DNA from: Vicugna vicugna
Lineage: Eukaryota
Reading direction: 5' to 3'
Assembly (NCBI GenBank): GCA_013265495.1
Contig: MU058059.1
Span: 3,325,502 to 3,389,501 of the forward strand
DNA length: 64,000 bases
A program made the position numbers and the translations under genes. Positions 8,965 through 62,455 of this stretch are shown here, piece after piece. The first letter of the stretch is position 1; each line of letters begins with the position of its first letter. The notes below the pieces were generated by a model. That model saw only the letters and a list, made by a program, of their open reading frames with translations, made no database searches and was not told where the DNA came from.

Positions 8965-9064
8965 GAGCTCTGCCAGTGCCGACCTGGAGAAGGAAATTGT
9001 TCCTGCTGTAAGGAGTGTATGCTGTGTCTTGGGACCCTTTGGGATGAGTGCTGTGATTGCGTCG
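8965..9064 (+). CDS. TWSG1: TWSG1 (twisted gastrulation BMP modulator) internal coding exon (exon 3); upstream coding exon lies outside the window
   Basis: ttctag|GAG...GTCG|gtaagt; translates [33 protein letters not shown](G), the N-terminal Cys-rich Tsg domain; phase 1 end matches next exon. Confidence 0.97.
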
Positions 9065-9589
9065 GTAAGTTGACGTATGATAAAGTTTTCTAATATTTCT
9101 TATCACGGAACCCTTGACTTTAAAGAGACTGTAAAGAATATAAATGTGTTTATCTGTGTCTAAGATAGAGTAGGTGTATAGATTACATTTGCTTGTACTG
9201 AATACTGTTTACATATGTATATATATTTTTTATTTCTATAGAAAAGTTCTGGGAGGAAATTAAAAGTGCTTATTCTTGGGAAGTAGGAGTGGAGGAACAT
9301 GCAGAGGGCTTTACTCTTTATATTTAATTTTTCTATCCTGCTGATTGTTTTCCTTTTCCAGTTTTATTAAGTAGAATCACTAGTGTGCCTGTGCAGATAC
9401 ATTATATCACATGTAAATACGTGTGTACAATAGGCTGTGCACAGTTTTTTCAGTTTGCATGTGTGTGCTGATCATTGTTTCTAAGAACAGATTAATGCGG
9501 TAATCCAGTCATAAGGGACTCATAAAAAAGTTCCTGTTTTATTCACAGGGTGGTAATCCCAGTACTGTCGTTTATTTTAGTGTTAAAGT

Positions 9590-9880
9590 CATCAGTTTGG
9601 CCAGTGGGAGCCCCTTCGGGTTGCTCCTGTGTCTTTTCAACATGTCCTCTCGCTCACTGATCACTTCCTTCCTTTCTGGTACAGATAAGTGTTCTGGGGT
9701 CATTTTGTGCTTTCCCTGTCCCAGCCCTGGAGTCAGTCTTTTCTCCGAGGAGCTCTGTTCCTCTTAGCCAAGGATAGGCATTTGGAAAACAAAGCCTGGG
9801 CACTCGGTGTGCTTGATGCTGCACAGTGTCACCAACTGCAAGTCCTCTCAGCGAAAAAGCTAGGAAGGTATCTGTGTAAT
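9590..9880 (-). mobile_element. L1MC-type 3' end remnant
   Basis: ttggccagtgggagccccttc...cacttccttcctttctgg...ccagccctggagtcag...ctgggcactcggtgtgct. Confidence 0.6.
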
Positions 9881-9900
9881 GTTAGAAGGCACCTGGTTTT

Positions 9901-9977
9901 ATATGTGTATATATATTTTTTATTGAAGTGTAGTCAGTTTACAATGTTGTGTCGATTTCTGGTGTACATCATGTTTG
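9901..9977 (-). mobile_element. Tiny 5'-truncated young L1 3' end with 17-bp TSD
   Basis: tttttattgaagtgtagtcagtttacaatgttgtgtc flanked by agaaggcacctg(g/a)tttt at 9884-9900 and 9978-9994. Confidence 0.8.
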
Positions 9978-10092
9978 AGAAGGCACCTGATTTTCATGTG
10001 TTGGGGCTTGGGTTGCAGGCCAGCCCCTAACAACATCTCATGACATTTAAGTCGTGAGAAAAACCTTGATTGTCTTTGCCCCTCCCCCGCAG

Positions 10093-10359
10093 GTATGTGT
10101 AATCCTCGAAATTACAGTGACACACCTCCGACTTCAAAGAGCACTGTGGAGGAGCTTCACGAGCCAATCCCTTCTCTCTTCCGGGCGCTCACGGAAGGAG
10201 ACACTCAGCTGAACTGGAACATCGTCTCCTTCCCTGTTGCAGAAGAACTTTCACATCATGAGAATCTGGTTTCCTTTTTAGAAACTGTGAACCAGCCACA
10301 CCATCAAAATGTGTCTGTTCCCAGCAATAATGTCCACGCACCTTATTCTAGTGACAAAG
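10093..10359 (+). CDS. TWSG1: TWSG1 coding exon 4
   Basis: ccgcag|GT ATG TGT...AAA G|gtaact; (G)MCNPRNYSDTPPTSKSTVEELHEPIPSLFRALTEGD...PYSSDK(E); 267 nt, phase 1-1. Confidence 0.97.
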
Positions 10360-11883
10360 GTAACTGCGGCAGCTGACTTTTCCTCTCTTGCCCCCTTGCT
10401 TTCTGCATGGCCTGTGAAGCGTGCATTAGCATTACCTTTTAGAGCAGCTTCTGTGGTCTTAGGTAAGTTCTAGACTTTCATGCACCCAACTCCTGAGTAG
10501 ACGAGGAGTTGTCCCAGTGCCCTCAGACTCTTGGCGACAGAGGCTGTGTTGCAAAATAGACAACCAGGTTCTAATTCTGATATTTATTTGCATTAGGCTT
10601 TAATGATTCTTTTCATGAGGTAGCAGCAGGGCTGCTCACCTAGCGCAGTGTTGCTTGCTGTCAGGTAACATTCAGAGTGTCAGAGGAGGTCAGGTTTCTG
10701 TGACAGCATTGCTACCACCAGTGATGCCAGGCCAGCAGGTACTCCTCAGTGGGCGCGTTGGGGTTACAGACTCCTGATTTCGGGTAGTAGACTCGCCCCA
10801 GCCAGCTCTCTGTAGGTGAGTCCTGTGGTCAGAAGGGAGCCTCCGTGGAGAGTGGCGGGTGCTTCGTGCTTCTCCGAGTCGCAGTAAGGAACACTTACTA
10901 GTGAGGGCAGGTCACACCTTAACTCTGGAATGTGAAAGGCATGTAACTTTTGTAAGGTCTCTGATGTTTCCAAATAAAAGGCCCCGCACAATTTTACTCT
11001 GAAAGGATAAGGCAGCTGTGAAAATTGCAGTTATTTCCTAACATATGAGGTGAATTATGCATAAACTGTATAATTTGTATTCTTTTTGATCTGGCTTTTT
11101 TGTCGTGCTCTCCATTACAGTCCTGTCTATCTAAAATAGTATGAGCTTTGGCCATCAGTAGTAAAAGCAAACAGCTTTTGTTAATAAAGAGTAAGAATTC
11201 TTAATTCCTCTTAGGCTAAAGTACTTTATAAGACAAATTCTAGATCTTGGAAAACATCAGAAATGTATGGAATGTGTCTTGCTACCATTTTCCCATTATT
11301 AACATGTAAATAATCAACATCATATTAAATAATTGATAAATTTTTCTCAAAGATTATTCAAAGTCATGAATTAATAAGCAGGAAGCTAATTCCTGAAAAC
11401 ACCAGCCGGGGCATTTTCTAACAGCTAATGCTGAATTGTGCTAGCATTGTTAACCACATTGTGTCATTTGAATTACTTAAGGTTATTTTATTTTGTTGTA
11501 TTCTCAGGATAGCTTTAGAACAGTATTTTTCAAACTTCTTTTAGCTGGAGAATTCTCTCCTCAGAGGAATCTTATCAGAAATGCCCAGTTTGGAGCTCCA
11601 AGTACAGCAAATGTTGTTAAGCCCAGGGATCTCCTTTCAGATCAGAGTCTGAAATCTGATGAAATGACGAGGGAAGCCCTTTGTTCTGCAGCCGGAGTGG
11701 GGACTTGCTTCCTTCTCAGCGTGACTAACGACTGTGATCTTTTCCCCACGCCGCACTGGTGTCCTGTGCAGACGGGCAGCAAAGAGCTGAGACAAGTACC
11801 TGTTCATAGTATTCAGCGAGGTATTAAAGCACTTCCTGCTTTTCCTGCTTCCTGTGCTGAAGTCTTCATCGTTTATTTTTCAG

Positions 11884-12065
11884 AACACATGTGTACAGTG
11901 GTTTACTTTGACGACTGCATGTCCATACATCAGTGTAAAATATCCTGCGAGTCCATGGGGGCCTCCAAGTACCGCTGGTTCCACAACGCCTGCTGTGAGT
12001 GCGTTGGCCCGGAGTGCATCGACTACGGCAGTAAAACTGTCAAGTGTATGAACTGCATGTTTTAA
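11884..12065 (+). CDS. TWSG1: TWSG1 last coding exon (exon 5) with stop codon
   Basis: ttttcag|AA CAC ATG; (E)[59 protein letters not shown], the C-terminal Tsg domain. Confidence 0.97.
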
Positions 12066-16609: not shown

Positions 16610-18380
16610 TGTCTATTACAAAGGATGCTTAGGGATACAAGTAAACTGCCAGGTAGAGATCACAGGGCAAGGGCCAGAGGTCTGGAGCGCAGGGGCTTCT
16701 CCCCAGTAGAGTTTGGGGAGCACCAGGCTCCTGGCACCCAGTTGCCTTCTTGTTCTCAACTTGGAAGCTCTCTGAACCCTGTCCTTTGGGGGTTTAATGG
16801 AGTCTTTACCACATAGGCATGGTTGCTTAAATCATTGACCACTGATTATGGAATCCAATCTCTAGTCCCTCTCCTCTCTCTAGAGGTTGTGGGGTGGGGC
16901 TGAAAGTTTTAGCACAAGGTTGAAAATCTAATCACAATGTTGGTTCCCCTGGCAAATAGGCCCCATCCTTAGGTGCCTTCCAAAAGTCATCCTATTATCA
17001 TAAACTGGTTGAAAGGGGCCTTTTTGTTTGTTTGTTTTCATATTCTTTTTCACCATAAGTTACTACAAGACATCAAATATAGTTCCCTGTGCTCTACAGT
17101 ATGAACTTGTTTATCCGTTTTGTATTTATCAGTTAGTACCTGCAAATCTCTAACTTCCAACTTATCCTCTCCTACCCACTTCCCACCTGGTAACAAGTTT
17201 GTTCTCTATGTCTGAGAGTCTGTTTCTGTTTTGCAAGTAAGTTTGTTTTTCTTTTTCTTTAGATTCCACATATAAGTAATATCATACGGTATTTTTCCTT
17301 CTCTTTCTGGCTTATTTCACTTAGAATGACAATCTCCAGGTCCATCCATGTTGCTGCAAATGGCATTATTTTATTCTTTTTTAGGGATGAGTAGTATTCC
17401 ATTGTGTAAATATACCACAAGTTCTTTATCCAGTCATCTGTCCATGGACGTTTAGGTTGTTTCCATGTCTTGGCTAATGTAAATAGTGCTGCTGTGAATG
17501 TTGGGGTGCATGTATCTTTTTGAATTGAGGTTCCCTCTGGATATATGCCCAGGAATGAGATTGCTGGATCATATGGTAAGTTTATTTTTAGTTTTTTGAA
17601 GCATCTCCATACTGTTTTCCATAATGGCTGTACCAAACTACATTCCCACCAGCAGTTTTGGAGGGTTCCCTTTTCTCCACACCCTCTCCAGCATTTATTG
17701 CTTGTGGACTTTTTAACGATGGACATTCTGACTGGTGTGAGGTGATACATCATTGTAGTTTTGATTTGTATTTCTCTGATAATTAGTGATACAGAGCATT
17801 TTTTCATATGACTATTGGCCATCAGTATGTCTTCACTGGAGAATTGCTTGTTTAGGTCTTCTGGCCATCTTTGGATTGGGTTTTTTGTTTTTTTCTTATT
17901 AAGTTGTATGAGCTGTTTGTATATTCTTGAAATTAAGCCCTTGTCAGTCTCATCTTTTGCAAATATTGTCTCCCATTCCATAGGTTATCTTTTTGTCTTG
18001 CTAATGGTTTCCTTTGCTGTGCAAAAGCTGTTAAGCTTAATCAGGTCCCATTTGTTTATTTTTGCTTTTATTTCCATTGCCTGGGTAGACTGCCCTAGGA
18101 GAACATGGCAGAGAATTATGTCGGAGAATGTTTTGCCTGTGTTTTTGTCTAAGAGGTTTACAGTGTCTTATGCTTAGGGCTTTAGGCCATTTTGAGTTTA
18201 TTTTGTGTGTGGAGTGAGGGAGCGTTCTGCCTTCGCTGATCCACACGCAGCGTTCCGGCTTCCCCAGCACCACTGGCTGAAGAGGAAGGAGGCTTGTTAT
18301 GCGGACACCTTTGTCACTCTGGAAGTTCCGAGGATTTTAAGACCAAATATGTATTTCTTATTATAAATCACAATATCACA
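16610..18380. mobile_element. MER21/MER77-like ERV LTR (16610-17020 and 18293-18380) interrupted by an L1
   Basis: tattacaaaggat...ggaagctctctgaaccctgtcc...gggtggggctgaaagtt; resumes after the L1 and ends atcacaatatcaca. Confidence 0.6.
17025..18290 (-). mobile_element. 5'-truncated lineage-specific L1 (ORF2 C-terminus + 3' UTR)
   Basis: ORF 17259-17981(-) is the L1 ORF2p C-terminus ([10 protein letters not shown]...[10 protein letters not shown]...CWWEC...TMEYYS...). Confidence 0.95.
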
Positions 18381-23080: not shown

Positions 23081-24134
23081 GTGATTCAAGATTTTTACCC
23101 CGATATATAGCTATTCAGATTTTCTCCTTTTTTCTTGGGTTAGTTTTGGTAATTAGTTCTAAGAATGCCGCCATTTTCATCTACTTTTAAAATTATTAGA
23201 ATTGAGAGAGTATTGGACGAAGGAATCGAAGTGATTGGGAAGGACTGTCCACCCCAATTTTATCATTCTCCTGATGTAAACTGCCAAACTTTATGAAAGA
23301 GCACCTAAAAAAACCCGTGACTTTCAGCCACGCATCAGAACTATTCTTTGAGCCTTTGGGAAGGATTCCTGGAGCAAATGAGGCTATTTCCAGTCTTCCT
23401 CTAGATCTCGCTAACGCGAGGCTGGGCAGCTCTGAGTCAGGAGCTCCTTCGGGGACGCTGAGGCAGAGGGCGGTGGAGGCCGGCGGCCCCGCTGAGCCCC
23501 AAGAATCCAGGGTGGCCCTTGTCAACGCCCGTTTCAGGAATTCTGAGGCTGGCCCCAACACGAAGTTCTACACAAGCTTCTCCTCCGAGGCCCACGGCGC
23601 TTCCCGTGTCCAAACCCCGAGCCAGTCTCCACCCCAGGCCCAAATTTCCCCACCCAGGCCGGCCGGGAGATGCCCCACCCAGCGGCAGGCCGGGCCGGCC
23701 TCCGGGCCGGTTTAACTGGTTAGGACTGAACCCGCCGGCGCAGAAGGTCTGTGCCTCGACAGCTAGAGAAGAGGCTGCGTAGAACGTGGCGAGGAAAGCG
23801 CTCGCCCCCAAGACCGCGACCAGCGCCGCCACAACCTTCTCCGCGACCTCGCCCGGGGTAGAGCCGCATCCCACCCCGTCGCCCACCACCCGGCACTGCG
23901 CAGGCGCCGGCGGAGCCCCAGCGCGGCCCGTCCTCTCGCGCGCTCTCCGACCTCCCGGGCAAGTTCCCGGGCAGGGTAGGCGCGGTGCTTCCTGGGTGTT
24001 GTAGTGCAATTCCCGACGAAGCGCCGCTTGCGGACCGGGCGCTGGGTTACCAGGACTACTTCTTCCAGCGTGCCCCGCGCGGGGTCAGCGCCGAGAGGCG
24101 GATCCGAGAAGCCGGCCGCGGCGAGAGGAGGGAG

Positions 24135-24307
24135 TGCGCATGCGCGCTGGGCCGGCTGATCCAGTTCCGTCCCAATCATTGTAAACAGGCGGAGGTTGGG
24201 GCGGGGTGGGAATGGGGCGCCCGAGGCCGGCCGGGGGTGCAGCGCAGGAGGCGGCTGCGGCGGCGGCGTGAGCGGAGGTGGCGGCGGCTGCGGCTGGGCG
24301 GGCACAG
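24135..24307 (+). other. RALBP1: RALBP1 non-coding exon 1 (5' end approximate)
   Basis: In the CpG island; ends at donor GGCACAG|gtcagt; resembles my recollection of the human RALBP1 5' UTR. Confidence 0.7.
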
Positions 24308-24361
24308 GTCAGTGGCGGGCCGGGGCGGGCGGGGGTGGCAGCGGCGGCGGCTTCCCGGCGC

Positions 24362-24992
24362 NNNNNNNNNNNNNNNNNNNNNNNNNNNNNNNNNNNNNNN
24401 NNNNNNNNNNNNNNNNNNNNNNNNNNNNNNNNNNNNNNNNNNNNNNNNNNNNNNNNNNNNNNNNNNNNNNNNNNNNNNNNNNNNNNNNNNNNNNNNNNNN
24501 NNNNNNNNNNNNNNNNNNNNNNNNNNNNNNNNNNNNNNNNNNNNNNNNNNNNNNNNNNNNNNNNNNNNNNNNNNNNNNNNNNNNNNNNNNNNNNNNNNNN
24601 NNNNNNNNNNNNNNNNNNNNNNNNNNNNNNNNNNNNNNNNNNNNNNNNNNNNNNNNNNNNNNNNNNNNNNNNNNNNNNNNNNNNNNNNNNNNNNNNNNNN
24701 NNNNNNNNNNNNNNNNNNNNNNNNNNNNNNNNNNNNNNNNNNNNNNNNNNNNNNNNNNNNNNNNNNNNNNNNNNNNNNNNNNNNNNNNNNNNNNNNNNNN
24801 NNNNNNNNNNNNNNNNNNNNNNNNNNNNNNNNNNNNNNNNNNNNNNNNNNNNNNNNNNNNNNNNNNNNNNNNNNNNNNNNNNNNNNNNNNNNNNNNNNNN
24901 NNNNNNNNNNNNNNNNNNNNNNNNNNNNNNNNNNNNNNNNNNNNNNNNNNNNNNNNNNNNNNNNNNNNNNNNNNNNNNNNNNNNNNNNNNNN
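24362..24992. other. Assembly gap (631 N)
   Basis: Run of N inside the GC-rich island at the start of RALBP1 intron 1. Confidence 1.
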
Positions 24993-26719
24993 TCCCGGCG
25001 GCCGGGCCTCCCCGCGTGCGGTGGGGCCCCCGGGGGCGGGAGGAGGTCGGGCGCCGGCCCCCAGCGCGGGGCCCCGGGCCTCGGGGCAGCTCGCGGGCGC
25101 CCCGTGGTTCACGTCGCCGCGCCCGGGATGTTGCCTGCTCCCCGTGCGCGCCCGGTGGCCTGGGAGGCTCCGCGGAGCCGCGGGGAGAATTCCTTCCACA
25201 ACTCCTTTTCGAGTACGCTGGTGCCCACATGCTCTAATTGAGGTCAGCTTGGTGGTTTTGTTTGTTTGTTTGTTGATTTATTGTCGTGATAGTGAAACAG
25301 GTTTTACAAAATAGTCCACCTCAGCCTTACCTGAAGTTGTTATGCGGTTTCAAGTTTGGGGGATTCTCGACCTCGGAGCCTCCCTCGTGAGCAAGCAGCC
25401 TGTTTCCTTTAGAGGCCTAGTAGAGTTGTTGAAGATAATTAAAATGTTACCTCGAGATGCTGTGAACGTGCAGGTGAAAGACGTTCAGTCGCTTGAACAC
25501 ACCGGTAGCCTCCCTAGGAGGCTTCCCCGAGCTTTTTTGTCGGGTGGGCATGTGCCACTGCCGGCACTTCGGGTTGCATTCCCTCATACTTGGCAGTTAT
25601 TCACAGAATATTCAAATAGTGACAAGGAGCAGGGCCCCTTCTGGTTTGGTGATCCTGGAAGCAGCACTTCTAAGTGAGTAGATGGGCCTGTGAATGAGAA
25701 AGGTTAACTTCACTTTCTGCCTTTTGAATTGTCTGGGTGATGTGATAATTCCTTTCTGAGTGTCTTCTTGAGAATGAGTAATTCCTATACAAACTGTACT
25801 GGCAAGTGTAGAGGCGGGAAGAAGTTGGTGCAGGGGTTTCCACTTTTCACAGTGACCCATAGATGTCAGGGAGGTGGGCTTGTTTAACGGTCACTGTCAG
25901 GAACTAATTCTTCAAAGTATCTTGGAGCAATGTGACATAATTTACCATCTCTTCAAAACAGTATTTCTCATTTTAGATCTTCCAGGGACCATTTCTCCCC
26001 TAATTTAGAAAAAATAAAAGTGGTATCAGAAAGTGCATATTCACTTGACTTTGTACAATTGTTTTTGCATCGTTGTTTGCTTGGCAAGGAGAGATTGGGC
26101 CTACAACATAACCTAAAAGTTATACTCTTTCAGAAAACGTCTGGGAACTTATGTTCGTATATGGGGAGGGAATAAGGAAAAATGAGATGATTTAGTGTAG
26201 AGGAATTTCCATGTAGCAGGAACTGTGAAGACAACTTACAGATGGATAAGGCACTGCCCCTGTCTTTGGGGTGGTAAGACTTTCTCTCTTTCTTGAGCTG
26301 TCTGCAAGGAAGGGCAGTATGTTTTTCAGTTGGCTTTGACTTGAGAAAGGATGGGGGAGCAATGGCTGTACAAGGGAGGTAGTGGCCAGTTTCTTGAGGG
26401 AGAGACTGAGGAAGGGGGTGGTGGTAAGGATAAGTGTATACAGGAGAGTATGCAAACACAGAAAGGACCCGCGTCTAGATGGGAGAACAGTGCGAGCAGA
26501 AGTTCAGAGGCCGAACTAACAATGAGTTGTGGGATCTGCAGGTGAAGCTGGCAGAGAGTGTAGGGTGGTGGCAGGTCGTGCAACTGGGATGGAGGGCAGA
26601 GGCCGAATTGCGCATAGTCTTGCAGACAGGGGAAGTAGTTTCCGCTTGATCTGGAAAGCGAGCAGGAGTCATTGAGACAGTGAAGAAGAGAGGCCTAAGT
26701 CAGCCTAACCCATTAAAAA

Positions 26720-44706: not shown

Positions 44707-45939
44707 GTAAGTGTCGTTTTCTCCTTGCTGTGGCTCTGTTTTAGGTAAACATCTCATCACAGGTGCCTGCTCTGCTATAGAAACAAATCCAGTCAAAGAC
44801 TCCTGTGTTATGTTTTCTTCATTTTTCTGGGTCTCAGTTTTTGCATTTTAGGGTCTTACTCTCATAAATAGAAATAACGAATTTCTGGAAATGGTAAAAA
44901 TTTCTGCTGGAAGTTTCGTAAACAGATCATTTAAAAAAATGTATGAAAAATAGACAGCGAGTTTAGTCCTTGTAGAATCTTGCTGTGTTGGCGAGGCTGT
45001 GTGGGCCAGCTGGGGCACACTTTATTGGAACTGAGAAAAGTATGTGTTCATGTGTCTTAAGCAAATGCCACGATGCGTTCCATTTATGATTCTTGTTCTG
45101 TAGGGAGGGTGAGCCACCTAGACATAGCTTTTCAGTTGTTAAAAGCAAATCAGGTGACTTAATGTTGCCTTATTTTGAGTTTCATGGTATTTTTCAGTTG
45201 GTTTGTCCTTGAAGTGTAGTGTGCGGATAGAAGGCACAGGTGGTGTGCCGCCTGACGAGTCAGCACAGAGCGGACGCGCCGCGGGATTAGCCCGAGGCTG
45301 TGGGTGGAGGGCGTTCGCAGCACCCTGGAATCCCGTTACTGCCCCTTCAGAGGGAGTCCGCCTGATTTTGGGATTTCGTCCATGGAAGTAGATCTCTGTT
45401 TGTGTGTGGTTTCTTTTGCCCACTGTTGTGTTGGCTGGATTCCTCCTGGTTTTCCGTGTGGCAGTGGTTGGTTCGTTTTTCTTGCTGGATTTTGTCTCAT
45501 CGCACTGACAGACTGGAATTCATTGTTCCCCTCTACCGCTGCTTGTCATCTGGGTTGTTTCCAGTGTCGGACTGTCAGGGACAGTGCTTCCGTCACCGTC
45601 ACTGTACGTGGTTCTGCATGTCTGTCGTGTGTTCCTGGGAGTGGAATTGCTGGCTCACAGGCCAGGCTCGCTTCAGCCTCAGTAGATGCTGCAGAACATT
45701 CCCGGAGTGGCTGTTCCAGTGGACACCCCACCAGCAGTGTCTGAGGACCCCAGTTATGCCGTGGTATCAGGCCCTTAGCCCCGCTGCCGTTCTGGTTGGT
45801 GTGGGGCTCATTTTAATTTAGAGGGACGTTGATGCAGAATCTTTCATCTTTGTGGTAAAATAGCCTGTGAGGTGGCTGGCTGAAGAAGAGGATAGGAGAG
45901 TTACAGGTGTGCAGAAGGGGACACCTGTCTAGGGTAACT

Positions 45940-46970
45940 GGCGTGAGCGCCGGGCTGTCCTGGCGCTGCCCTCCCCGCCGGCGGCCGGCTGCGGAAGGGG
46001 CTGCGCGGCCCGAGCCGGGGCCAAGTGGGAGGGCCGGCTCGGGGCGTGGTTGGACACTGCTCCCAGGGACAGGGAGCAAACCGGGAAAAATCTAGGCTAA
46101 GTAAAGTAAGCTAGGGGATGTCACTGGGATGATGAAAGGAGACTGTTCTACAGAATTCTCTCCATTGGCCTCTGTGCAGGTAATAAAGTAACGGCTGGAT
46201 GATTCCTTACGGTGAGTTGGTTCGCGGAAGTTCCAGTTACGCGGTGAGAGAGCCAGTCGCAGGGCCGGCCGTGCGCGTCGCTGCCCTGTGTCAGGGCCCG
46301 TCAGGGGGCCGGGCGGGCCGGCGCGGGGTGAGCAGCCCTGTGGCGGCCCGGCGGTGCCCCGTGCTCTTCTCAGGCACTGAGAGGGGACGCCTGGCGCGCG
46401 CAGACATGTCACTCACTCCCTGCGTCTCTTCGGCAGCCGAAGGCTACGCCGCCTTCCAGGAAGACAGCTCTGGAGATGAGGCCGAGAGTCCCTCCAAAAT
46501 GAAGCGCTCCAAGGGGATCCACGTCTTCAAGAAGCCCAGCTTTTCTAAGAAGAAAGAGAAGGATTTTAAAATCAAAGAGAAACCCAAAGAGGAGAAGCAC
46601 AAGGAGAAGAAGTCCAAGGACCTGACGGCGGCGGACGTGGTGAAGCAGTGGAAGGAGAAGAAGAAGAAGAAGAAGCCGGTCCCCGAGCCCGAGGCGCCGC
46701 CGGCCGACGCGCCGAGCCTGCGGCCGGTGTTCGGGGCGCCGCTGGCGGACGCGGCCGAGCGCACCATGCTGTGCGACGGCGTGCGGCTGCCCGCCGTGTT
46801 CCGCGAGTGCGTGGACCAGGTGGAGCGGCGCGGGATGCGGTGCGAGGGCATCTACCGGGTGTCAGGTGCGCGCCCCGATGGGGGCGGGGCGGGGCGGGGC
46901 GGGGGGCGCAGCCGGCCCGCGCGGCTCTCACCCCTCCGCGGGAGGGCGAGGTCGCGTTGCTCCTGCTCAC
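45940..46970. promoter_or_regulatory. Intragenic CpG-island-like region around RALBP1 exon 3
   Basis: High GC and CpG density before, within and after exon 3. Confidence 0.65.
46437..46865 (+). CDS. RALBP1: RALBP1 exon 3 (Lys-rich region, start of RhoGAP domain with Arg finger GIYRVSG)
   Basis: cggcag|CC GAA GGC TAC...TCA G|gtgcgc; (T)EGYAAFQEDSSGDEAESPSK...CEGIYRVS(G); phases match both neighbours. Confidence 0.96.
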
Positions 46971-47381
46971 ACAGAGCTCTCCAGTCAGACCATACACGTT
47001 CAGAACAGACGGAGACTAGACTGACTTTTTCAGTTTAATTGCACGTTCAGGCACGTTTGTAGAAGGTTCGATATTTACGCTTCTTAAGAAAGGACAGGCG
47101 TGTTTGATGAGATAAAGGGAGACCTGTAAAGCAACTATACTTCCTAAAAAAGGAGGGGAAGTAAGGGAGACCTTTACAGGAGCCCATGGGTAATACGTTC
47201 TCCCTGAAGACATTCTGGCTAAAATGCTACTACTTTATAGAAAAAGTGAACGAACTAGGAACTGAATATGAATTTGTAAGTCCTTAGTAACATAAAAATA
47301 AACACATTTAAATGAATTTGAAATTTCAACTTTTAAGAAGAATTGATGATGACAGGAGTTTTAAAGAGCTAAGCAGTCCCA

Positions 47382-51886: not shown

Positions 51887-52557
51887 GTGCGCGGCCGCCT
51901 GCGCCAGGGGGCCCGTTCCCCGGGCCCTTCCCGTGTGTTGGGGAACGTGCTGGGGCCCCTTACGAAGGCGATGCCGGGTTCCTGGGAGCAGCCCGGAAGT
52001 GTTAGCTTACCTGGACCGGCAGCGTTGTCGGCACTGTGCTACAGATAATACTGAAATCTGGGGGAGCTACGGAGCTCTGCCAGCTGCTTGCTAAGCTGGA
52101 GACCCTGGATTTGACGGTGTCCTGTGCTTCCCACTCTGCCGCTGGAACAGTGCCATGTGGTTGTGTGTGTGTGTGTCTGCCGAGCTGAGTGAGGAATTCA
52201 AGACTAAGAAATTTACTTACATCTGATCATTTTTACACCTTTTGTTTGGGTACCAGTTTCAGATCCCTGCTTGTTTTTCTGTTCTGAGCTCCCGTTTCCT
52301 ATCAGTTGATGATGGGTTGAGGGAAGGGGGTGAATTAACTACTCCTGAACCAGTGTAAACTGATGGATTAGGACCCCCTGCTCAGGCAGAACAAAAATGA
52401 TTTTTCAGTCGTGTCCTTAAGAAACGGTGCTATCACGTCGTTTCTTTAATGATAAATGCGAGGTAGTTGCTTCTCCGTCTTTAGAAACTGCATGTGGTTT
52501 TATTTTAAGATGGTAAGATGTGGAATGCTATTCAGTGTGTGGTGTACGGTTTTCTAG

Positions 52558-53729: not shown

Positions 53730-56700
53730 GGTGATTTCAACTTTGAGGAGTAAATGATTTTTAAAGATAGAAGTAATACAGTTCATTATGTTAACAGACT
53801 AAAAATAAGAAAACCCACAAGATCATTTGGCAGAATTTGACATTTAACTCCTGATAAAAACTTTCAGTCACCGCCTTCTTAGCATGATAAAGGGCATTTA
53901 CCAAAAACAAAACAAAACAAAACAAAACAAAACAAAAAATATATGGTTTACGTTGCACTTAATGGTGGAAGTCTGAAGGCTTTCCTCTAGGATTGGGTGT
54001 ACAAGCGGAGATTTCTGATCTCACCTCTTCTGTTCAGCACGGATGAGGCCGTTCTAGCCTGTGTGATAAAACAAGGGAAAAAAGGCACACGGATTGGAGA
54101 GAAATCGGTCTTTATAAAGGTGATATAACTGTCTCTATATAAAAGCCTAAGGAATTTATAAAAAATGGGATGTGAGTTTAGCAACATTGTAGTTATACAG
54201 GGTCAGATACACATGTCTATTGTATCTCTGTGTATCAGCAATGAACTATTGATACTGAACCTGAAAAGAAAAAAGACCTAAATAATTCGGTAAATATCTC
54301 AATACTGTTAATATGTTAGGTTTTCCCAAACTGATCTGTGGAGTCAGTTCCAGTCAAAATCTAAACAGGCGATTTTGGTAGAAATTAACAAGCTCTTCTA
54401 AAATCTGTATGGAAACACAAATGTCCTAGAATAGCCTGAACAATTTTGAAAAAGGACAGCTGATATGAGACTTAAAGCTGAAGGAATCGAGACAGGAGGT
54501 ACTGGGTGAGGAAAGAAAGTGCAGAAACAGGCCAGCACATACGTGGGCAGTTAATTTTCTTTTTTTATTGAAGTACAGTCAGTTTATAATGCTGAGTCAG
54601 TTTCTGTTGTACAGCACAGTGCTTCACTGACACATACATTACACGTTTTTCAGACTTTCTCACCGTAAGTTACTACAGGATATTGAATACAGTTCCCTGT
54701 GCTCTACAGCATGAACTTGTTGATCTGCTTTTTTGTATTAGTGTCTGCAAATCTCAAACTCCCAACTTCTCCCTTCCCCCCACCCCTCGGTGACCACAGG
54801 TTTGTTTTCTATGTGAGTCTCTTTCTAAGTAAGTTCGTCTGTCTTTTTTTCTTTTTTAGATTCCTCATGTAAGTGATCTCATGTGGTATTTGTTTCTCTT
54901 TCTGGCTTGCTTCTCTTAGAATGACAATCTCCAGGTCCATCTGTGTTGCTGCAAATGGCATTTTATTAATGGTGGAGTAGCATTCCATTGTATCAGTGTA
55001 CCACAACTTCTTTATCCAGTCACCTGTCGATGGACGTTTAGGTTGTTTCCATGTCTTGGCTACTGTAAGTAGTGCTGCTGTGAACGTTGCGGTGCGTGTA
55101 TCGTTTTGAATGAAGGTTCCTTCTGGATATATGCTCAGGAGTGGGATTGCTGGATAAATGGTAAGTCTGTTTTTAGTTTTTTGAGGCATCTCCATACTGT
55201 TTTCCACAACGGCTGCAGCAAGCTGCATTCCCCCCAGCAGTGTAGAAGGGCTCCCTTTTCTCCACACCCTCCCCAGGATTTATCATTCATGGATTTTGAA
55301 TGATGTCTATTCTGACTGGTGTGAGGTGATACCTCACTGTAGTTTTGATTCGCGGTTCTCTGATAATTAGTGATATTGAGCATTTTTTCATGTGCCTTTG
55401 GCCATGCATATATCGTTGGAGAATTGCTTGTTTAGGTCTTCTGGCCATTTTTGGATTGGGTTGTTTGTTTTTTTTCCTATTAAGTTGTATGAGCTGCTTA
55501 TATATTCTGGCAAATAAGCCCCTGTCAGGCTCATCTTTTGCAAATATTTTCTCGCATTCTGTAGGTTGTCTTTGTTTTGGTTGTGGTTTCCTTTGCTGTG
55601 CAGAAGCTTGTAAGTTTAATCAGGTCCCATTTGTTTATTTTTGCTTTTATTTCTGTTGCTTGAGTAGATGCCCTAGGAGAACGCTGCTGAGATTTATGTC
55701 AGAATGTTTTGCCTGTGTTTTCTTCTGAGAGGTTTACTGTGTCTTACGCTGAAGTCTTTAAGCCACTTTGAGTTTGCCTTTGTGTGTGGTGTGGGCAGGT
55801 AATTTTCAACAAAGATGCCAAGACAGTTGAATAGGGAAGGGTCTTCTTTTCGGCAAATGGTGCTGGAACAACTGGATATCTATGTGCAAAAAAAAAAAGA
55901 GCCTGAGTCCAATAACATATACAAAAATTAGCTCAAAATGAATCATACGTGGAGACCTAAAAAAAAACCTCCAGAAGAAAGCGCCAGAGAAGGTTTTACT
56001 GACTTTGGCTTAAGCAGTGACTTCTTAGTAGGACACAAAACCCATGAACTATATATATAAAAGGAGAATTTGGAAAATTACATTTCATCACAACATACTT
56101 TTCAAACGACACTGTTAAATTAAGATAAACATGCAAACCAGAGGCTGTGACAGTATTTGTAAAAACCACACACCTACCTGATACAGGACTTGGACTGACA
56201 TATATTAAAAAACACAACAGGACAAACCAATTTTTTTCTTCCTATATCTTTAGAGCAGTTTTAAGTTCACAGCAGAATTCAGGGAAAGGTAGAGATTTCC
56301 CACCTACCTTTCCCCCCACGTGCACAGCCTCCCTCATTATCAACACCCTCCAGAGGGTCATTTGTTACAGTAACAACTCAGGCAGACATTTGAGCAGGCC
56401 CTTTACCAAAGGTGACACACAGATGGTGAACAAGCACTGAGAAGGCGCTCAGCAGCGTCAGTCACAACGGAGGTGGCACGAGGACAGCCAAAGTCACACA
56501 TAGCGAGTGTTGACAAGAGCGGAGCAGCCGGACCTTTGGTACCGCTCTTGGTACAGACATTTTGGAAAACAGTTTCTTTTCAAGTTAAGCATAAGGTTCC
56601 CATGTGACCCAGCAGTCCCACCCCAGGTGGTTACCTGACAGAAGAAGGCATACACACACCCAACGCAAGCAGAGCTCACGCCAGGTCTGGTCAGAGTGGC

Positions 56701-57940: not shown

Positions 57941-59460
57941 CGCAAGGCTCCTAATGGTCAGCTTACAGTCTGAGCAGCTCAGCTGCAGGGGGTGTGAATC
58001 TTCTAGCCAGCCTTCTCAGACGGCTTGGAGGTTGCAGAGGGACGGCCTTGCACTTGGCGTTCCCTTCTGTGCTGCATGGCCGCTTCTGCCTGGACACGGT
58101 TCTGGACGCCCCCCTTCTCTCCTTTTCCTTCCCCCAGGGCCGAGTTAGAGGTGTTTTCCTTAAGTTACAATTTAGTTGTGCGTGTTCCGTATTAATGAGA
58201 TTGGACTTACATTTGACAACATCCTTCCTGACGGCACTAAGTTTGAGGCCCTTGAAATGTGATGATGGAGATTTTAGCTGGTGGTGGTTGCTGGTAACAC
58301 CTTTCAGGCATTCTGACTTTATTCTTTGCAGATCAGTCAGTTGTTGGAGGTGAGTTGCTTTACCGCCCACTCGCGGACTTGGCGCACAGCTCTCGAGGGC
58401 CTCCTGTGTTCCTGGCCAGGAGCTGAGGAAGAGCTCCTTTCTTTCTGAATCTCAGTCGGCCTTACTCTGTTCTGGAAATTCCCAGAGTTTAGCCCAAAAG
58501 AAATGAAGTTCTAGGCTCTGACAGCATCGTCTGTGCTTCCAGAAACTCATGTACGTGGGTACCTGGAGCCTTACCAGCCTCAGTCCTTTCCTGTCACTCC
58601 TGAGAAATACATGGTTTTGCTGCCGGGGCCCGAGAACTCCTCTCCCTTGAAGAGAGGCTGGAGGCCCAGACAGGCCTGTGTTTCAGAGTTCTCAGTCTCG
58701 GAACGTGCACTTCTGTAGGTGCACTGAGGGCGCAGAACAGGCATCACGTAGGGAGGACGCCTGCCACGTCCAGGAGGCTCCGAGTAGGTCCCTTCAGAAC
58801 GCGATCACAGCGGCTTTTGAGTTTCATCACAGGCTCTCCTCTGCATCCCTGTTGCTTGGAAAGAAACGCTCTGGACCTTTGCTGCTTCCAGCTCGTTCCT
58901 GTAGCGTCCCCAACTCACCTCCTAGGTTCCGTCTGCTTCGAGTCTTTCTCTCAGTTGGGGGGCGGCTGGATCCCGGACAAGTAGGGATTTTTTCCCTTTA
59001 GGTAATTCCAGTTTAGAAATATGCACACAGTATTTACTGTTGAAGTGTTCTCTCTGGGGACAGGAGGTGAGGACAGTGGCTTGTGGCGAGGAGGGTCTGC
59101 TGCTAGGTGATGCTGACGCCAGCTGCACCTCTCCTGGGCCCTCACATGGGCCCTCCCTTTCCTGCGCGGTGGGGAGGTGCTCAGAAGGGTCTGGAGCAGA
59201 GACAGACGACGACACCTGGACCGCATGTCTGGTGTGCTCGCCTCGGAGGGAGCCTCTGCAGGACGAGGATGGGGAGCTCCCAAGGGGCATTTTGCGTCTT
59301 GAGGAAAACCTGGTCACTCCTCCCAGACCGCTGAGCGCACCTTCTGCTGACGTCAAGTCTCCGGGTGTTTTCGGGTGTGCGGCTCCGCGAGCTTTCCCGG
59401 AACTCGGTGTCGGGCGTCCCCAGACTTGGTCTCAGCCGTGCTTACAAGGGTGCTTTTCAG

Positions 59461-59582
59461 GAGAACGAGATCCTGACCGAGCAGGAGGAGCTCCTCGCCA
59501 TGGAGCAGTTTCTGCGCCGACAGATCGCCTCGGAGAAGGAGGAGATCGAGCGGCTCCGAGCCGAGATCGCCGAGATCCAGAG
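59461..59582 (+). CDS. RALBP1: RALBP1 exon 8
   Basis: tttcag|GAG...CAG AG|gtaacg; ENEILTEQEELLAMEQFLRRQIASEKEEIERLRAEIAEIQ(S). Confidence 0.96.
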
Positions 59583-59675
59583 GTAACGCAGGGCGGCAGG
59601 GTCCCTTGTCAAGAAGAGGGGGTGGCGCCAGCGGGCCAGGGCGCCTGCTGACCCTGGGGTCGCGTCTCCCCGCAG

Positions 59676-59796
59676 CCGGCAGCAGGGCCGCAGCGAGACG
59701 GAGGAGTGCTCCTCGGACAGTGAGAGCGAGAGCGAGGACGAGGACGAGCTGCAGGCCATCCTGGAGGAGCTGCAGAGGCAGAACGAGGAGCTGGAG
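59676..59796 (+). CDS. RALBP1: RALBP1 exon 9 (acidic Ser/Glu tract)
   Basis: ccgcag|C CGG...GAG|gtgagg; RQQGRSETEECSSDSESESEDEDELQAILEELQRQNEELE. Confidence 0.94.
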
Positions 59797-60818
59797 GTGA
59801 GGCGGGCCTGGGGACACCACGGAGAAAGGGGCTTTGGGGCGGGGGGTGGAGCAGCGCGCGGGGGCGGGCGGGCGGGGCTTGTCCTGGCCCTGCGCCTGAG
59901 AGCAGGTGGGAGGGGCCCCAGCCCGACAAAGCCGCTTGAGCAGGACGCCCCTTCTACTCCAGAGGAGATTAAGTAGCGCTGGGTGTCAGGGGCTGTGCCC
60001 GCCGCAGAAAGAGGCCCACGCCCTGAGCAGCAGAGGAAGCTTAATTCCACACACAGGACCCCCCCCAACATCCTCCCACAGAACCGAGCAGAGACGTTGG
60101 CAAGGCCAGCCCCCCACCTGGGCTCCCCCCGTCTTCCTTCCCTTAGCGAGGTCTCACGGTCGCCTCGGCCTCTTGTGTGTTTTTCAAGCATGTTTCAGAC
60201 TGAGTAGGAGAGCATCTTCCAGAATCACAGCCCTGGGGATGGAACAAGGTCGTCCAAACAGGAGAGCCCTCCCCCCAGCAGATGCTCGGGCCTGCTGCCC
60301 TGTGCCCCGGGTTGGTTCCCCCTGGGACCCGGTCCCTCTGGGTCTGGCTCGCTCAGTTTACAGGAAGGGGAAGAGGAGGGTCAGGGCTGAGGGCGGGTGC
60401 GCAGGAAGCAGGGCGGCTGGGAGGAGGGAAGCCAGGGCTGGAGGGGTTTTGTGCTGCCTCGACTGCTGGACAGGTGCAGGCGTTACAAAGCTGCTGGTGG
60501 TTTTCTATCGTCCGAGCAGGTGGCACAGGTCAGGTGTAAGCAGGGCCAGTCCCAGAAGAGGAAGGACATCACTTTTGAGACAGAGCTCAGGTTTTACACT
60601 AATAACACCTGATGTCATTAAAGCCTGTTTTCTGTGGGTGCAGTTTTGTCTCCCAGGGGCGTTTGCTCCTCTGTGATTTAAGCAGTTGGTACCTTGATCC
60701 ATTCTGTGCTCGTGTTTTCTCTCACAACCAGCTGGACCAGAACAAAGGCAGGTTCTTGGGTGGGTGGCTGGCCCCTCTCCACCGTCCTTTCGGTGAGCGC
60801 CACCCTCCTTTCCTCCAG

Positions 60819-61028
60819 ATCAAGAACAATCACCTGAACCAGGCGGTTCACGAGGAGCGCGAGGCCATCATTGAGCTGCGGGTGCAGCTCCGCCTGCTCC
60901 AGATGCAGCGGGCCCGGCCCGAGCCCCCCAGCGACCCCGAGCCTGGCGCCGCCAAGGAGCCGCCCCCGGCGGGCAGGGAGCCAGCCCGGCCGTCGCCCAG
61001 CAGGGACAGGAAGGAGACGCCCATCTGA
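60819..61028 (+). CDS. RALBP1: RALBP1 exon 10, coding part with stop; joined CDS 1878 nt = 625 aa
   Basis: ctccag|ATC; IKNNHLNQAVHEEREAIIELRVQLRLLQMQRA...PSPSRDRKETPI*. Confidence 0.96.
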   Translation: MKNNHLNQAVHEEREAIIELRVQLRLLQMQRARPEPPSDPEPGAAKEPPPAGREPARPSPSRDRKETPI

Positions 61029-62455
61029 GCCGCGCGGGCCGCAGGCCTGTGCACCTGACTGCGCCCCGGCCAGAGCCCCGCCGTACCTGCTGTAAAGGCG
61101 TCTCCTCCTCCCTCATGGAGGACGCAGGCGTCGGGCTCGGGGCCCCCGGGGAGGACGGGCAGGCGCGGGCGGCCGGCGTGGCACGGAGGCTTCCAGATGC
61201 TGTCCGCTTCTCTGAAGATTTTCTTTGTTAACTTAAAGTAACTATTTTCACCCTTGAGTGGCTTCTTTTTAAACCAAAAATCGTCTTTCTTTGCTTTTTT
61301 ATTAAGGCAGAATGAGGATTTTTCTCTCGTTCAAGGGGGATCCCGGACACGGCAGACAGCGCCCGCCTCTGCGAGGCCCGTGGTCCCCTCCAGGGTCCCC
61401 GCTCACCTGTCACTCCTGCTTGTGCCTTTCACACCTCTCTGGTGCAGATTCTACGCTGGGAGCTGCCTCCCCTTTCCTGAGGGGCCAGAATGGCTCTCAC
61501 TGGGGTTCCCTCCCTGCCCCCCACCAACACCCTCCTTGGGACAGGCCCCCGTCACAGTCCCTGAGCCCGAGTCACCACCGCGGCCTCGTTGGTCAGAGCC
61601 GCCCCGGGGCAGTGGCCACCTCTCTCCGGCTCCTGCGGCCACTGGTCAGCAGACGCTCTCCACGGGCTCGGTGGGATGTGGCCGCCTGGACCGGAGGCTC
61701 TGGCTCTCAGACCTCCCCTCAGAACAGGACGTCATCGTAGGCTGCTCACCTGGGCTAGAATGTAAGTGTCTCTCTGCCTGAATAAGCCATATCGATAGAC
61801 AAACACGCTCTGACCTGAGTCCACACCGTCTCACCAAGCCGCTGCCGGACTCCCAGCTGACCAGACTGAGCAATAGGAAACGGCTTTGCTCGGGGGGCAG
61901 CCGTGTCCCGACCCCCCCCCACCCTGCTTCCCTGGGGCCCTGGGGCGTCTGGGGGGCCGCTCTGTCTGTGTACACGGCTGTGAAGACAGCCCCTCACCCA
62001 GGGTGATGGAGACCCCCCCCCCGGGGCTCTGTGCTCTCCTCCTGGTTTGTATTTATTTTCAGCACCTCTTCTATGCGGTTTTTACCCTCTACCTATTGCA
62101 CTGTTGTGACTTGTTGGCCATTATTTGATTTTTGTACGAAAAAAGCTTTGTTATAGAAATCAGCATACTATTTTTTTAAATCTGGAGAGAAGATATTATG
62201 GTGACTGAAAATATGGTCAGGTGTCAAATGTAAGTGTATAAAGCCTTCCAGCCATCCTGTCGGTCATGTTACATTCATTTCACATTTGCTGGCAATATTG
62301 AAGGTTTCTTTTTTGTGTAAACTCTAATTTCTATCAAGGTGTCATGAATTTTTTAAATTAGTATTTCATTACAGCTGTCTCAGCGTTGGTTAACTAATTT
62401 TTGCCAGGACCCATTGTTGATCAAGCAAATAAATTCAACAGCCATTTGAGGAAAA
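61029..62455 (+). other. RALBP1: RALBP1 3' UTR (approximate end)
   Basis: Follows the stop; GC-rich blocks alternate with AT-rich blocks (61210-61330, 62045-62450); ends after AATAAA. Confidence 0.75.
62428..62433 (+). terminator. RALBP1 polyadenylation signal
   Basis: AATAAA at the end of the AT-rich UTR block, with ttttttgt downstream at ~62468. Confidence 0.8.

Follow-up and report, generated by a model that had tools for sequence, protein, structure and literature searches.

How a burst of amino-acid replacements came to be concentrated in one half of a single exon is the question raised by the RALBP1 locus of Vicugna vicugna. It had been predicted that local GC-biased gene conversion (gBGC) drove G/C-directed substitutions into the start of the RhoGAP domain, mimicking positive selection. 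The locus was analysed in a window of 64,000 nucleotides (the whole stretch of DNA examined), and the nucleotide positions given below are positions in this window. Changes from A/T to G/C and the reverse are written W-to-S and S-to-W, respectively, and GC3 denotes G/C at third codon positions.

Camelid RALBP1 was located on the + strand with nine coding exons, GT-AG borders and an open frame of 625 residues. The translation of the spliced coding sequence (CDS) was identical to the annotated Vicugna pacos RALBP1 protein (P0006), and differed from the proteins of Camelus dromedarius and C. ferus at two and three residues, respectively. The stretch under study was 100% identical across the annotated proteins of C. 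ferus, C. dromedarius and V. pacos, and the translation of 46676-46864 was as originally predicted. The identity in three camelids, together with the GT-AG borders and the open frame, shows that the stretch is not an assembly artefact. Because the alpaca and both camels have the same stretch, its changes were placed on the camelid stem, before the camel-alpaca split. The zero replacements between the alpaca and the two camels in this stretch fit saturation before that split. The principal features are listed in Table 1.

Table 1. Positions of features of RALBP1 in the window
Feature	Position	Strand	Details
CpG island, probably the RALBP1 promoter	23650-25300	.	o/e 0.96
Intragenic CpG island around the exon	45900..47000	.	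1101 bp, GC 0.66, 108 CpG, o/e 0.92
Upstream intron flank, GC-rich	46200..46436	.	GC 0.70, CpG o/e 0.93
RALBP1 coding exon 2 (human exon 3), whole	46437..46865	+	429 nt, AG/GT borders
GC3-saturated tract, sharp 5' edge inside the exon	46586..46864	+	88/90 codons vs 34/49 before
3' half of coding exon 2 (half-exon), residues 162-224, amino-acid burst	46676..46865	+	Replacement triplets; GC3 60/61
K187R coded CGG	46721..46723	+	Two further Lys-to-Arg CGG codons at 46826-46828 and 46838-46840
M203L and Y204C, linker/Ral-binding-domain contacts	46769..46774	+	Human NMR structure, PMC3852207
Y219Q, K222R and H223R on helix A	46817..46831	+	Helix 200-212, low-confidence model
Arginine finger codon, R222 = human Arg232, kept	46856..46858	+	Alignment; PMC3852207
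Downstream intron flank, GC-rich	46866..47000	.	GC 0.76, o/e 0.92; ~0.4 past 47000

Human residue numbers equal camelid numbers plus 10, owing to the loss of two out of three five-residue repeats earlier in coding exon 2. These Lys/Glu/His repeats lie at 46586-46600, where the GC3-saturated tract has its 5' edge, and each of the three camelids lacks two of them. Several rodents have lost the same 10 residues. The exon pattern of the gene was common to the camelid and a bird locus. The C-terminal tail is approximately 20 residues shorter than in the horse, as it is in the whale. TWSG1-like exons upstream of RALBP1 (8965-11993) had moderate GC3 (18/34 and 27/37), so the neighbouring gene is not saturated. 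The usual donor consensus is GTRAGT; the donor sites at 46866-46873 and 51887-51894 begin GTGCGC and are GC-richer, and splice signals are possibly drifting under the same bias as the exon. HSA18 matches two camel chromosomes, according to the part of PMC6371769 available. Five runs recorded as RNA and one guessed to be RNA contained 0.28-0.33 of the words, which gives no evidence of expression.

Replacements were counted in triplets. With the whale as comparison and the horse as outgroup, 14 camelid-only replacements were found in the 63 codons of the half-exon vs 1 in the whale (p=0.001). Other triplets gave 15 vs 1 (dolphin/bat), 12 vs 1 (buffalo/horse) and 11 vs 2 (pig/horse), with p between 0.0005 and 0.022 over the four triplets and no S-to-W changes. 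The count thus ran from 11 to 15, and reached 16 when I181A and H223R were included. None of the other segments of the RALBP1 protein was significant in the same triplet test, and the 5' half of coding exon 2 had zero camelid-only replacements. Human exons 6-8 (aa 396-515) had been described as nearly invariant and indeed carried a single camelid-only change; they are, however, near-invariant in all mammals compared and are therefore a weak control.

A 65-taxon tree was used with a fixed topology; the goat protein P0098, which is apparently error-rich, was left out. The camelid stem was the longest branch for this region, with 20.9 expected changes vs 9.0 for the next. It was also fast over the other 527 columns (29.8 expected changes), and 16 changes were assigned to it elsewhere in the protein, 9 of them W-to-S and 2 S-to-W. 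By branch length, changes on the stem were clustered in the region (21 vs 30 elsewhere, compared with 144 vs 589-684 on other branches). This gave p=1e-3, or p=1e-4 with the tarsier rows kept; 95 tarsier changes derive from a misaligned isoform, and the test is given with and without them. Triplet-based clustering was marginal (p=0.06).

The half-exon differs from that of the chimpanzee at 19 residues. The prediction that nearly every difference from the human protein moves to GC-richer codons held for the camelid-only changes, all of which are W-to-S, but three of the 19 (A198, V207 and V217) are not camelid-derived. A198 is common to horse, bats, pig and mole, V207 is present in all 10 other cetartiodactyls, and V217 in 42 of 60 mammals. 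Most of the altered residues are not ancestral in Laurasiatheria. The site of R223 is His in 10 of 10 other cetartiodactyls, and S185 and R187 also occur in ruminants. Among 226 non-camelid proteins, Q219 was absent and R223 occurred once, and both are essentially private states.

All 14 camelid-only replacements in the whale/horse triplet were directed from A/T to G/C, with none in reverse and none GC-neutral. In matched triplets, W-to-S replacements numbered 14 in camelids, 0 in the whale, 2 in the buffalo and 3 in the pig. The same 63 codons in other mammals (46 triplets) gave 65 W-to-S, 16 S-to-W and 7 neutral changes, and the camelid ratio of 14:0 does not depart significantly from the background of 65:16 (p=0.12). 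Because the changes of other mammals also run W-to-S, an all-G/C direction is weaker evidence than it appears. The variable sites of the half-exon hold AT-coded residues, and the background may itself be a trace of repeated conversion.

Codon choice was skewed beyond what selection on the protein accounts for. The codon CGG, present at three Lys-to-Arg sites, is reached from any Lys codon by two steps from A to G/C, the second of them A-to-C; in the next exon, by contrast, Lys-to-Arg took a single step, to AGG. Arg codons in the half-exon were CGN in 8 of 8 cases, vs 24 of 39 elsewhere in the CDS. NCG codons made up 11/19 in the half-exon vs 29/108 elsewhere (p=0.014), and Y|G codon junctions formed CpG in 16/16 vs 51/72.

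Third positions were G/C in 60 of the 61 non-Met/Trp codons of the half-exon and in 41 of the 42 fourfold codons, and 35 CpGs gave an observed/expected ratio (o/e) of 1.2, in agreement with the predicted G/C and CpG richness. The predicted extent was too short, since saturation begins approximately 90 bases earlier than the half-exon. GC3 of the half-exon exceeded that of the rest of the CDS (446/549; Fisher p=1e-4) but did not differ significantly from that of coding exons 3, 7, 8 and 9 combined (240/262; p=0.09); coding exons 5 and 6 had GC3 of 0.58 and 0.40. As four other exons are also GC3-rich, the half-exon is the peak of a patchy intragenic GC rise and not a lone one. Coding exons 7-9 (59400-61250) have GC3 of 0.92-0.98, CpG o/e near 0.8 and few replacements. 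The intragenic island lies approximately 21 kb from the probable promoter island, which is broken by a 631-base assembly gap at 24362-24992. Richness in GC and CpG reaches into both introns and then falls sharply; the remainder of the following intron has GC 0.40 and CpG o/e 0.30.

The genome scan yielded outgroup DNA for the exon in 0 of 214 cases. From the metagenome scan came two loci among 577 stretches, L001 (bird-like) and L002 (fish-like), and these were the sole RALBP1 DNA comparators. They have 7 and 6 CpGs, respectively, in the corresponding stretch, vs 35 in the camelid. Silent third-position differences from the bird-like locus, which are unpolarised, were G/C in the camelid by 20:0 in the half-exon. 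Elsewhere in the gene the same unpolarised comparison also ran towards G/C: exon 3 gave 34:2, exon 7 gave 19:0, the 5' half of coding exon 2 gave 18:5 and exon 5 gave 11:7. Bias in several exons means that the GC rise extends beyond one exon. The silent sites of the half-exon probably changed on the same branch as the replacements, and the retained CpGs hint at conversion that has gone on since, or at hypomethylation in the germline.

Repeats in the window were used as neutral markers. Most copies of one repeat family decay AT-ward, with GC* of 0.23-0.49 when compared with the majority of sister copies. An intronic copy at 54555-55104 (wider span 54555-55793) was W-to-S biased, at 30:7 and 35:3 against two references; compared with a long partner at 17035-18216, the copy from 54555 gave 90:40 (p=1e-5). 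The copy at 54555-55793 is a candidate second gBGC tract of the gene. As it lies in presumably neutral intronic DNA, patchy bias exists in the RALBP1 gene. Closer to the exon, W-to-S:S-to-W was 8:5 in a SINE 0.5 kb downstream, and repeat pieces at distances of 1.9 kb (6:6) and 3.7 kb (7:5) were without bias. Since the nearest repeats are uninformative or unbiased, any bias around the exon would be local, on a scale of about 1 kb, as expected of a hotspot rather than of a regional mutation bias.

The camelid protein is a RALBP1 orthologue that retains the RhoGAP and Ral-binding domains. The Pfam RhoGAP domain (PF00620) scored 147 bits, vs 151-152 in whale and primates, and PF20924 scored 88 bits. 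None of the positions that are invariant in a 49-sequence vertebrate alignment was altered. The catalytic Arg was kept, as had been predicted, and so was the supporting lysine (K258, human Lys268). In these domains and residues the protein resembles the human RALBP1/RLIP76 RhoGAP-RBD didomain (PDB 2MBG; Rajasekar et al. 2013, as described in the accessible part of PMC3852207). It differs from it by 16 GC-directed replacements at human 173-226, which include 203 and 204, and by the two repeats missing from the exon's 5' half. The burst had been placed at the start of the RhoGAP domain; ten of the 16 changes are inside the solved domain (184-368), but six (human 173-183) precede it. Judged from alignment, the changes look mostly tolerated. 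An AlphaFold model was poor (mean pLDDT 54.7; below 50 over 160-207 and 214-227) and was used for helix positions only.

In the human structure, Met203 touches the linker, and Phe407 and Leu408 enclose Tyr204 from either side (PMC3852207, same part). Cys at 204 is also found in squirrels, gundi, gerbils and elephant. Leu-Cys at 203-204 recurs in camelids, Sciurus and Acomys, with Val-Cys in the elephant. Of five mammalian changes at 203, four adjoin Cys204 (camelids, Sciurus, Acomys and elephant), the exception being one Lemmus record. Strict epistasis of 203 on C204 was rejected, as squamates, woodpeckers, a caecilian and fish combine L203 with Y204. Any conversion tract would also take in both neighbouring codons. 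The pairing remains a lead. Compensation of Y204C at the 'hasp' residue 377 was also rejected; this residue is Thr in 60 of 61 aligned sequences and Met only in Pan.

The observations in the camelid gene, namely its composition, the CpG island, the surplus of replacements on the stem, the direction they take and the unaltered invariant residues, are most likely explained by gBGC at the intragenic island, a reading that we hold with good but not complete confidence. A local meiotic recombination hotspot would have been active at the half-exon on the camelid stem lineage. There, gBGC would have carried G/C alleles to fixation in place of A/T at almost all silent sites, and also at those amino-acid sites where the protein tolerates change, while purifying selection would have held the invariant residues. 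Recombination would thus be the cause, and the changes would be neutral or mildly deleterious. For the predicted local gBGC, the stem excess and the branch length stand in support, but the direction does not significantly exceed background and the GC richness of four other exons makes the pattern less local than had been proposed.

The burst likely works like the exon-scale episodes of gBGC described in humans (PMC2631073) and rodents (PMC12290510), a known process. In rodents, exon-by-branch episodes are common and equilibrium GC3 is near 94% (PMC12290510). As in those episodes, the camelid exon was accelerated on one branch with W-to-S replacements, its GC3 is near saturation, its flanks are GC-rich and other exons are partly affected. 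Unlike them, the camelid burst is larger (11-16 replacements in 63 codons) and falls on a long, old branch; the published studies polarised silent sites by DNA outgroups, whereas the camelid silent sites are unpolarised. A second, possible likeness is to the PRDM9-independent ('default') hotspots at hypomethylated CpG islands, as presented in the available portion of Joseph et al. 2024 (PMC11161765). The o/e is promoter-like, and the W-to-S runs in the same half-exon of several distant lineages are what a long-lived site would give, but the camelid island is intragenic. Camelids were not found in the text or four supplements of that paper, insofar as these were accessible. A search on PRDM9 and alpaca returned nothing relevant. 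No publication joining RALBP1 and biased gene conversion was found in a search outside which most subscription papers lay. Matches for RALBP1 with camel or 'positively selected', and for GC3 and biased gene conversion in vicugna, were unrelated to the locus, judging from titles and the beginnings of abstracts.

The rival that survives best, although improbable, is relaxed constraint combined with lost germline methylation, in which an unmethylated island stops CpG decay without any fixation bias. Within the domain this segment tolerates change best, with 32 of the 63 sites variable in other mammals, and the six changes ahead of the solved domain, the protein-wide speed of the camelid stem and the GAP activity of human RALBP1, more than 100-fold weaker than that of p50 RhoGAP (accessible text of PMC3852207), agree with this. 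Halted CpG decay, however, lowers S-to-W rates and, on established reasoning, should not lift W-to-S replacement rates. The transversions (Q>P twice, M>L, and A-to-C in three CGG codons) are not CpG effects, and relaxed constraint sits poorly with 0 of 14 replacements being S-to-W or GC-neutral.

A parallel case was found in colobine monkeys. The colobine protein P0127 (the records of Semnopithecus entellus and Trachypithecus francoisi are the same) has 9 changes in the region and 1-2 elsewhere. The changes are at residues 173-204, are all W-to-S directed, and are missing from macaques and chimpanzee; their clustering gave p=8e-5 before correction for 46 triplets. All nine sites are within the 16 camelid-changed sites, and seven reach the identical residue. 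The overlap of sites had p=4e-4 over 32 variable sites and 1e-3 when weighted, but approximately 0.04 by a hand estimate in which about 21 W-to-S-accessible sites were counted. Much of the overlap arises because few sites are tolerant. The colobine changes are apparently independent of the camelid ones, and gBGC may have acted in colobines also, as one colobine protein sequence suggests. At the protein level, squirrels, Acomys and elephant have smaller runs at overlapping residues, and whales, apes and macaques have none.

RALBP1 also has a published selection call. It is row 411 in Supplementary Data 4 of PMC12905343 (2026), among 538 convergent positively selected desert genes. That list concerns Camelus and Hippotraginae, and RALBP1 has P(foreground)=0 and P(background)=0.5. 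The 22 genomes include alpaca and llama, and non-arid species were background, so the camelid stem was possibly background too. The burst predates Camelus and its main changes are common to the alpaca. It may then have been on the background side and not registered as selection, with the foreground signal coming from another source. The claim that the burst mimics positive selection is not borne out: the gene is on the list, but the burst is perhaps on the side with P=0.5. EPC1 is also among the 538 genes, and RYR2, TBCE, LYST and TWSG1 are absent. The words 'gene conversion' had zero matches in the main text of PMC12905343; the preprint of its test method, in the part available, names gBGC as a possible confounder (10.64898/2026.01.29.702612).

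Camelids and colobine monkeys are both foregut fermenters. Convergence of foregut fermenters was rejected, as ruminants lack the changes. More broadly, positive selection on the GAP-domain start or its RBD contact, perhaps convergent with colobines or linked to deserts, is considered very unlikely. In its favour, the changes include the interface residues M203 and Y204 and the nearly unique states Q219 and R223, the colobine protein shares seven identical changes, and the gene is on the desert list. Selection gives no reason, however, for W-to-S changes only or for saturation at silent sites. Ruminants share S185 and R187 alone, both common states, and many of the camelid residues recur in squirrels and other rodents. 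As for deserts, the alpaca has every change, so none is Camelus-specific. Equally hard to credit is selection on DNA or RNA, with the island a camelid regulatory element (an alternative promoter or enhancer) or GC codons favoured: its o/e compares with that of the promoter-side island and it covers both intron flanks, but the biased repeat copy lies in another intron.

An extension of gBGC beyond the camelid stem is tentative and, in our estimate, on the unlikely side. The half-exon would be a repeatedly reused recombination site, with independent gBGC in camelids, colobines and squirrels at one intragenic island; camelids would rely heavily on PRDM9-independent hotspots, and the desert lists would consist in part of gBGC scars. 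If this were true, a convergence scan would misread as adaptive the seven substitutions that two unrelated groups of foregut fermenters have in common.

Taken as a single case, the camelid burst clearly illustrates a known process; its wider interest lies in the parallel among colobines and in the selection call already in print. The changes at 203 and 204 provide a natural variant for probing how much rigidity is needed in GAP-RBD coupling. Camelid and colobine RALBP1 together would offer a worked case of non-adaptive molecular convergence, and the gene is a concrete test of whether selection scans in camelids are inflated by gBGC.
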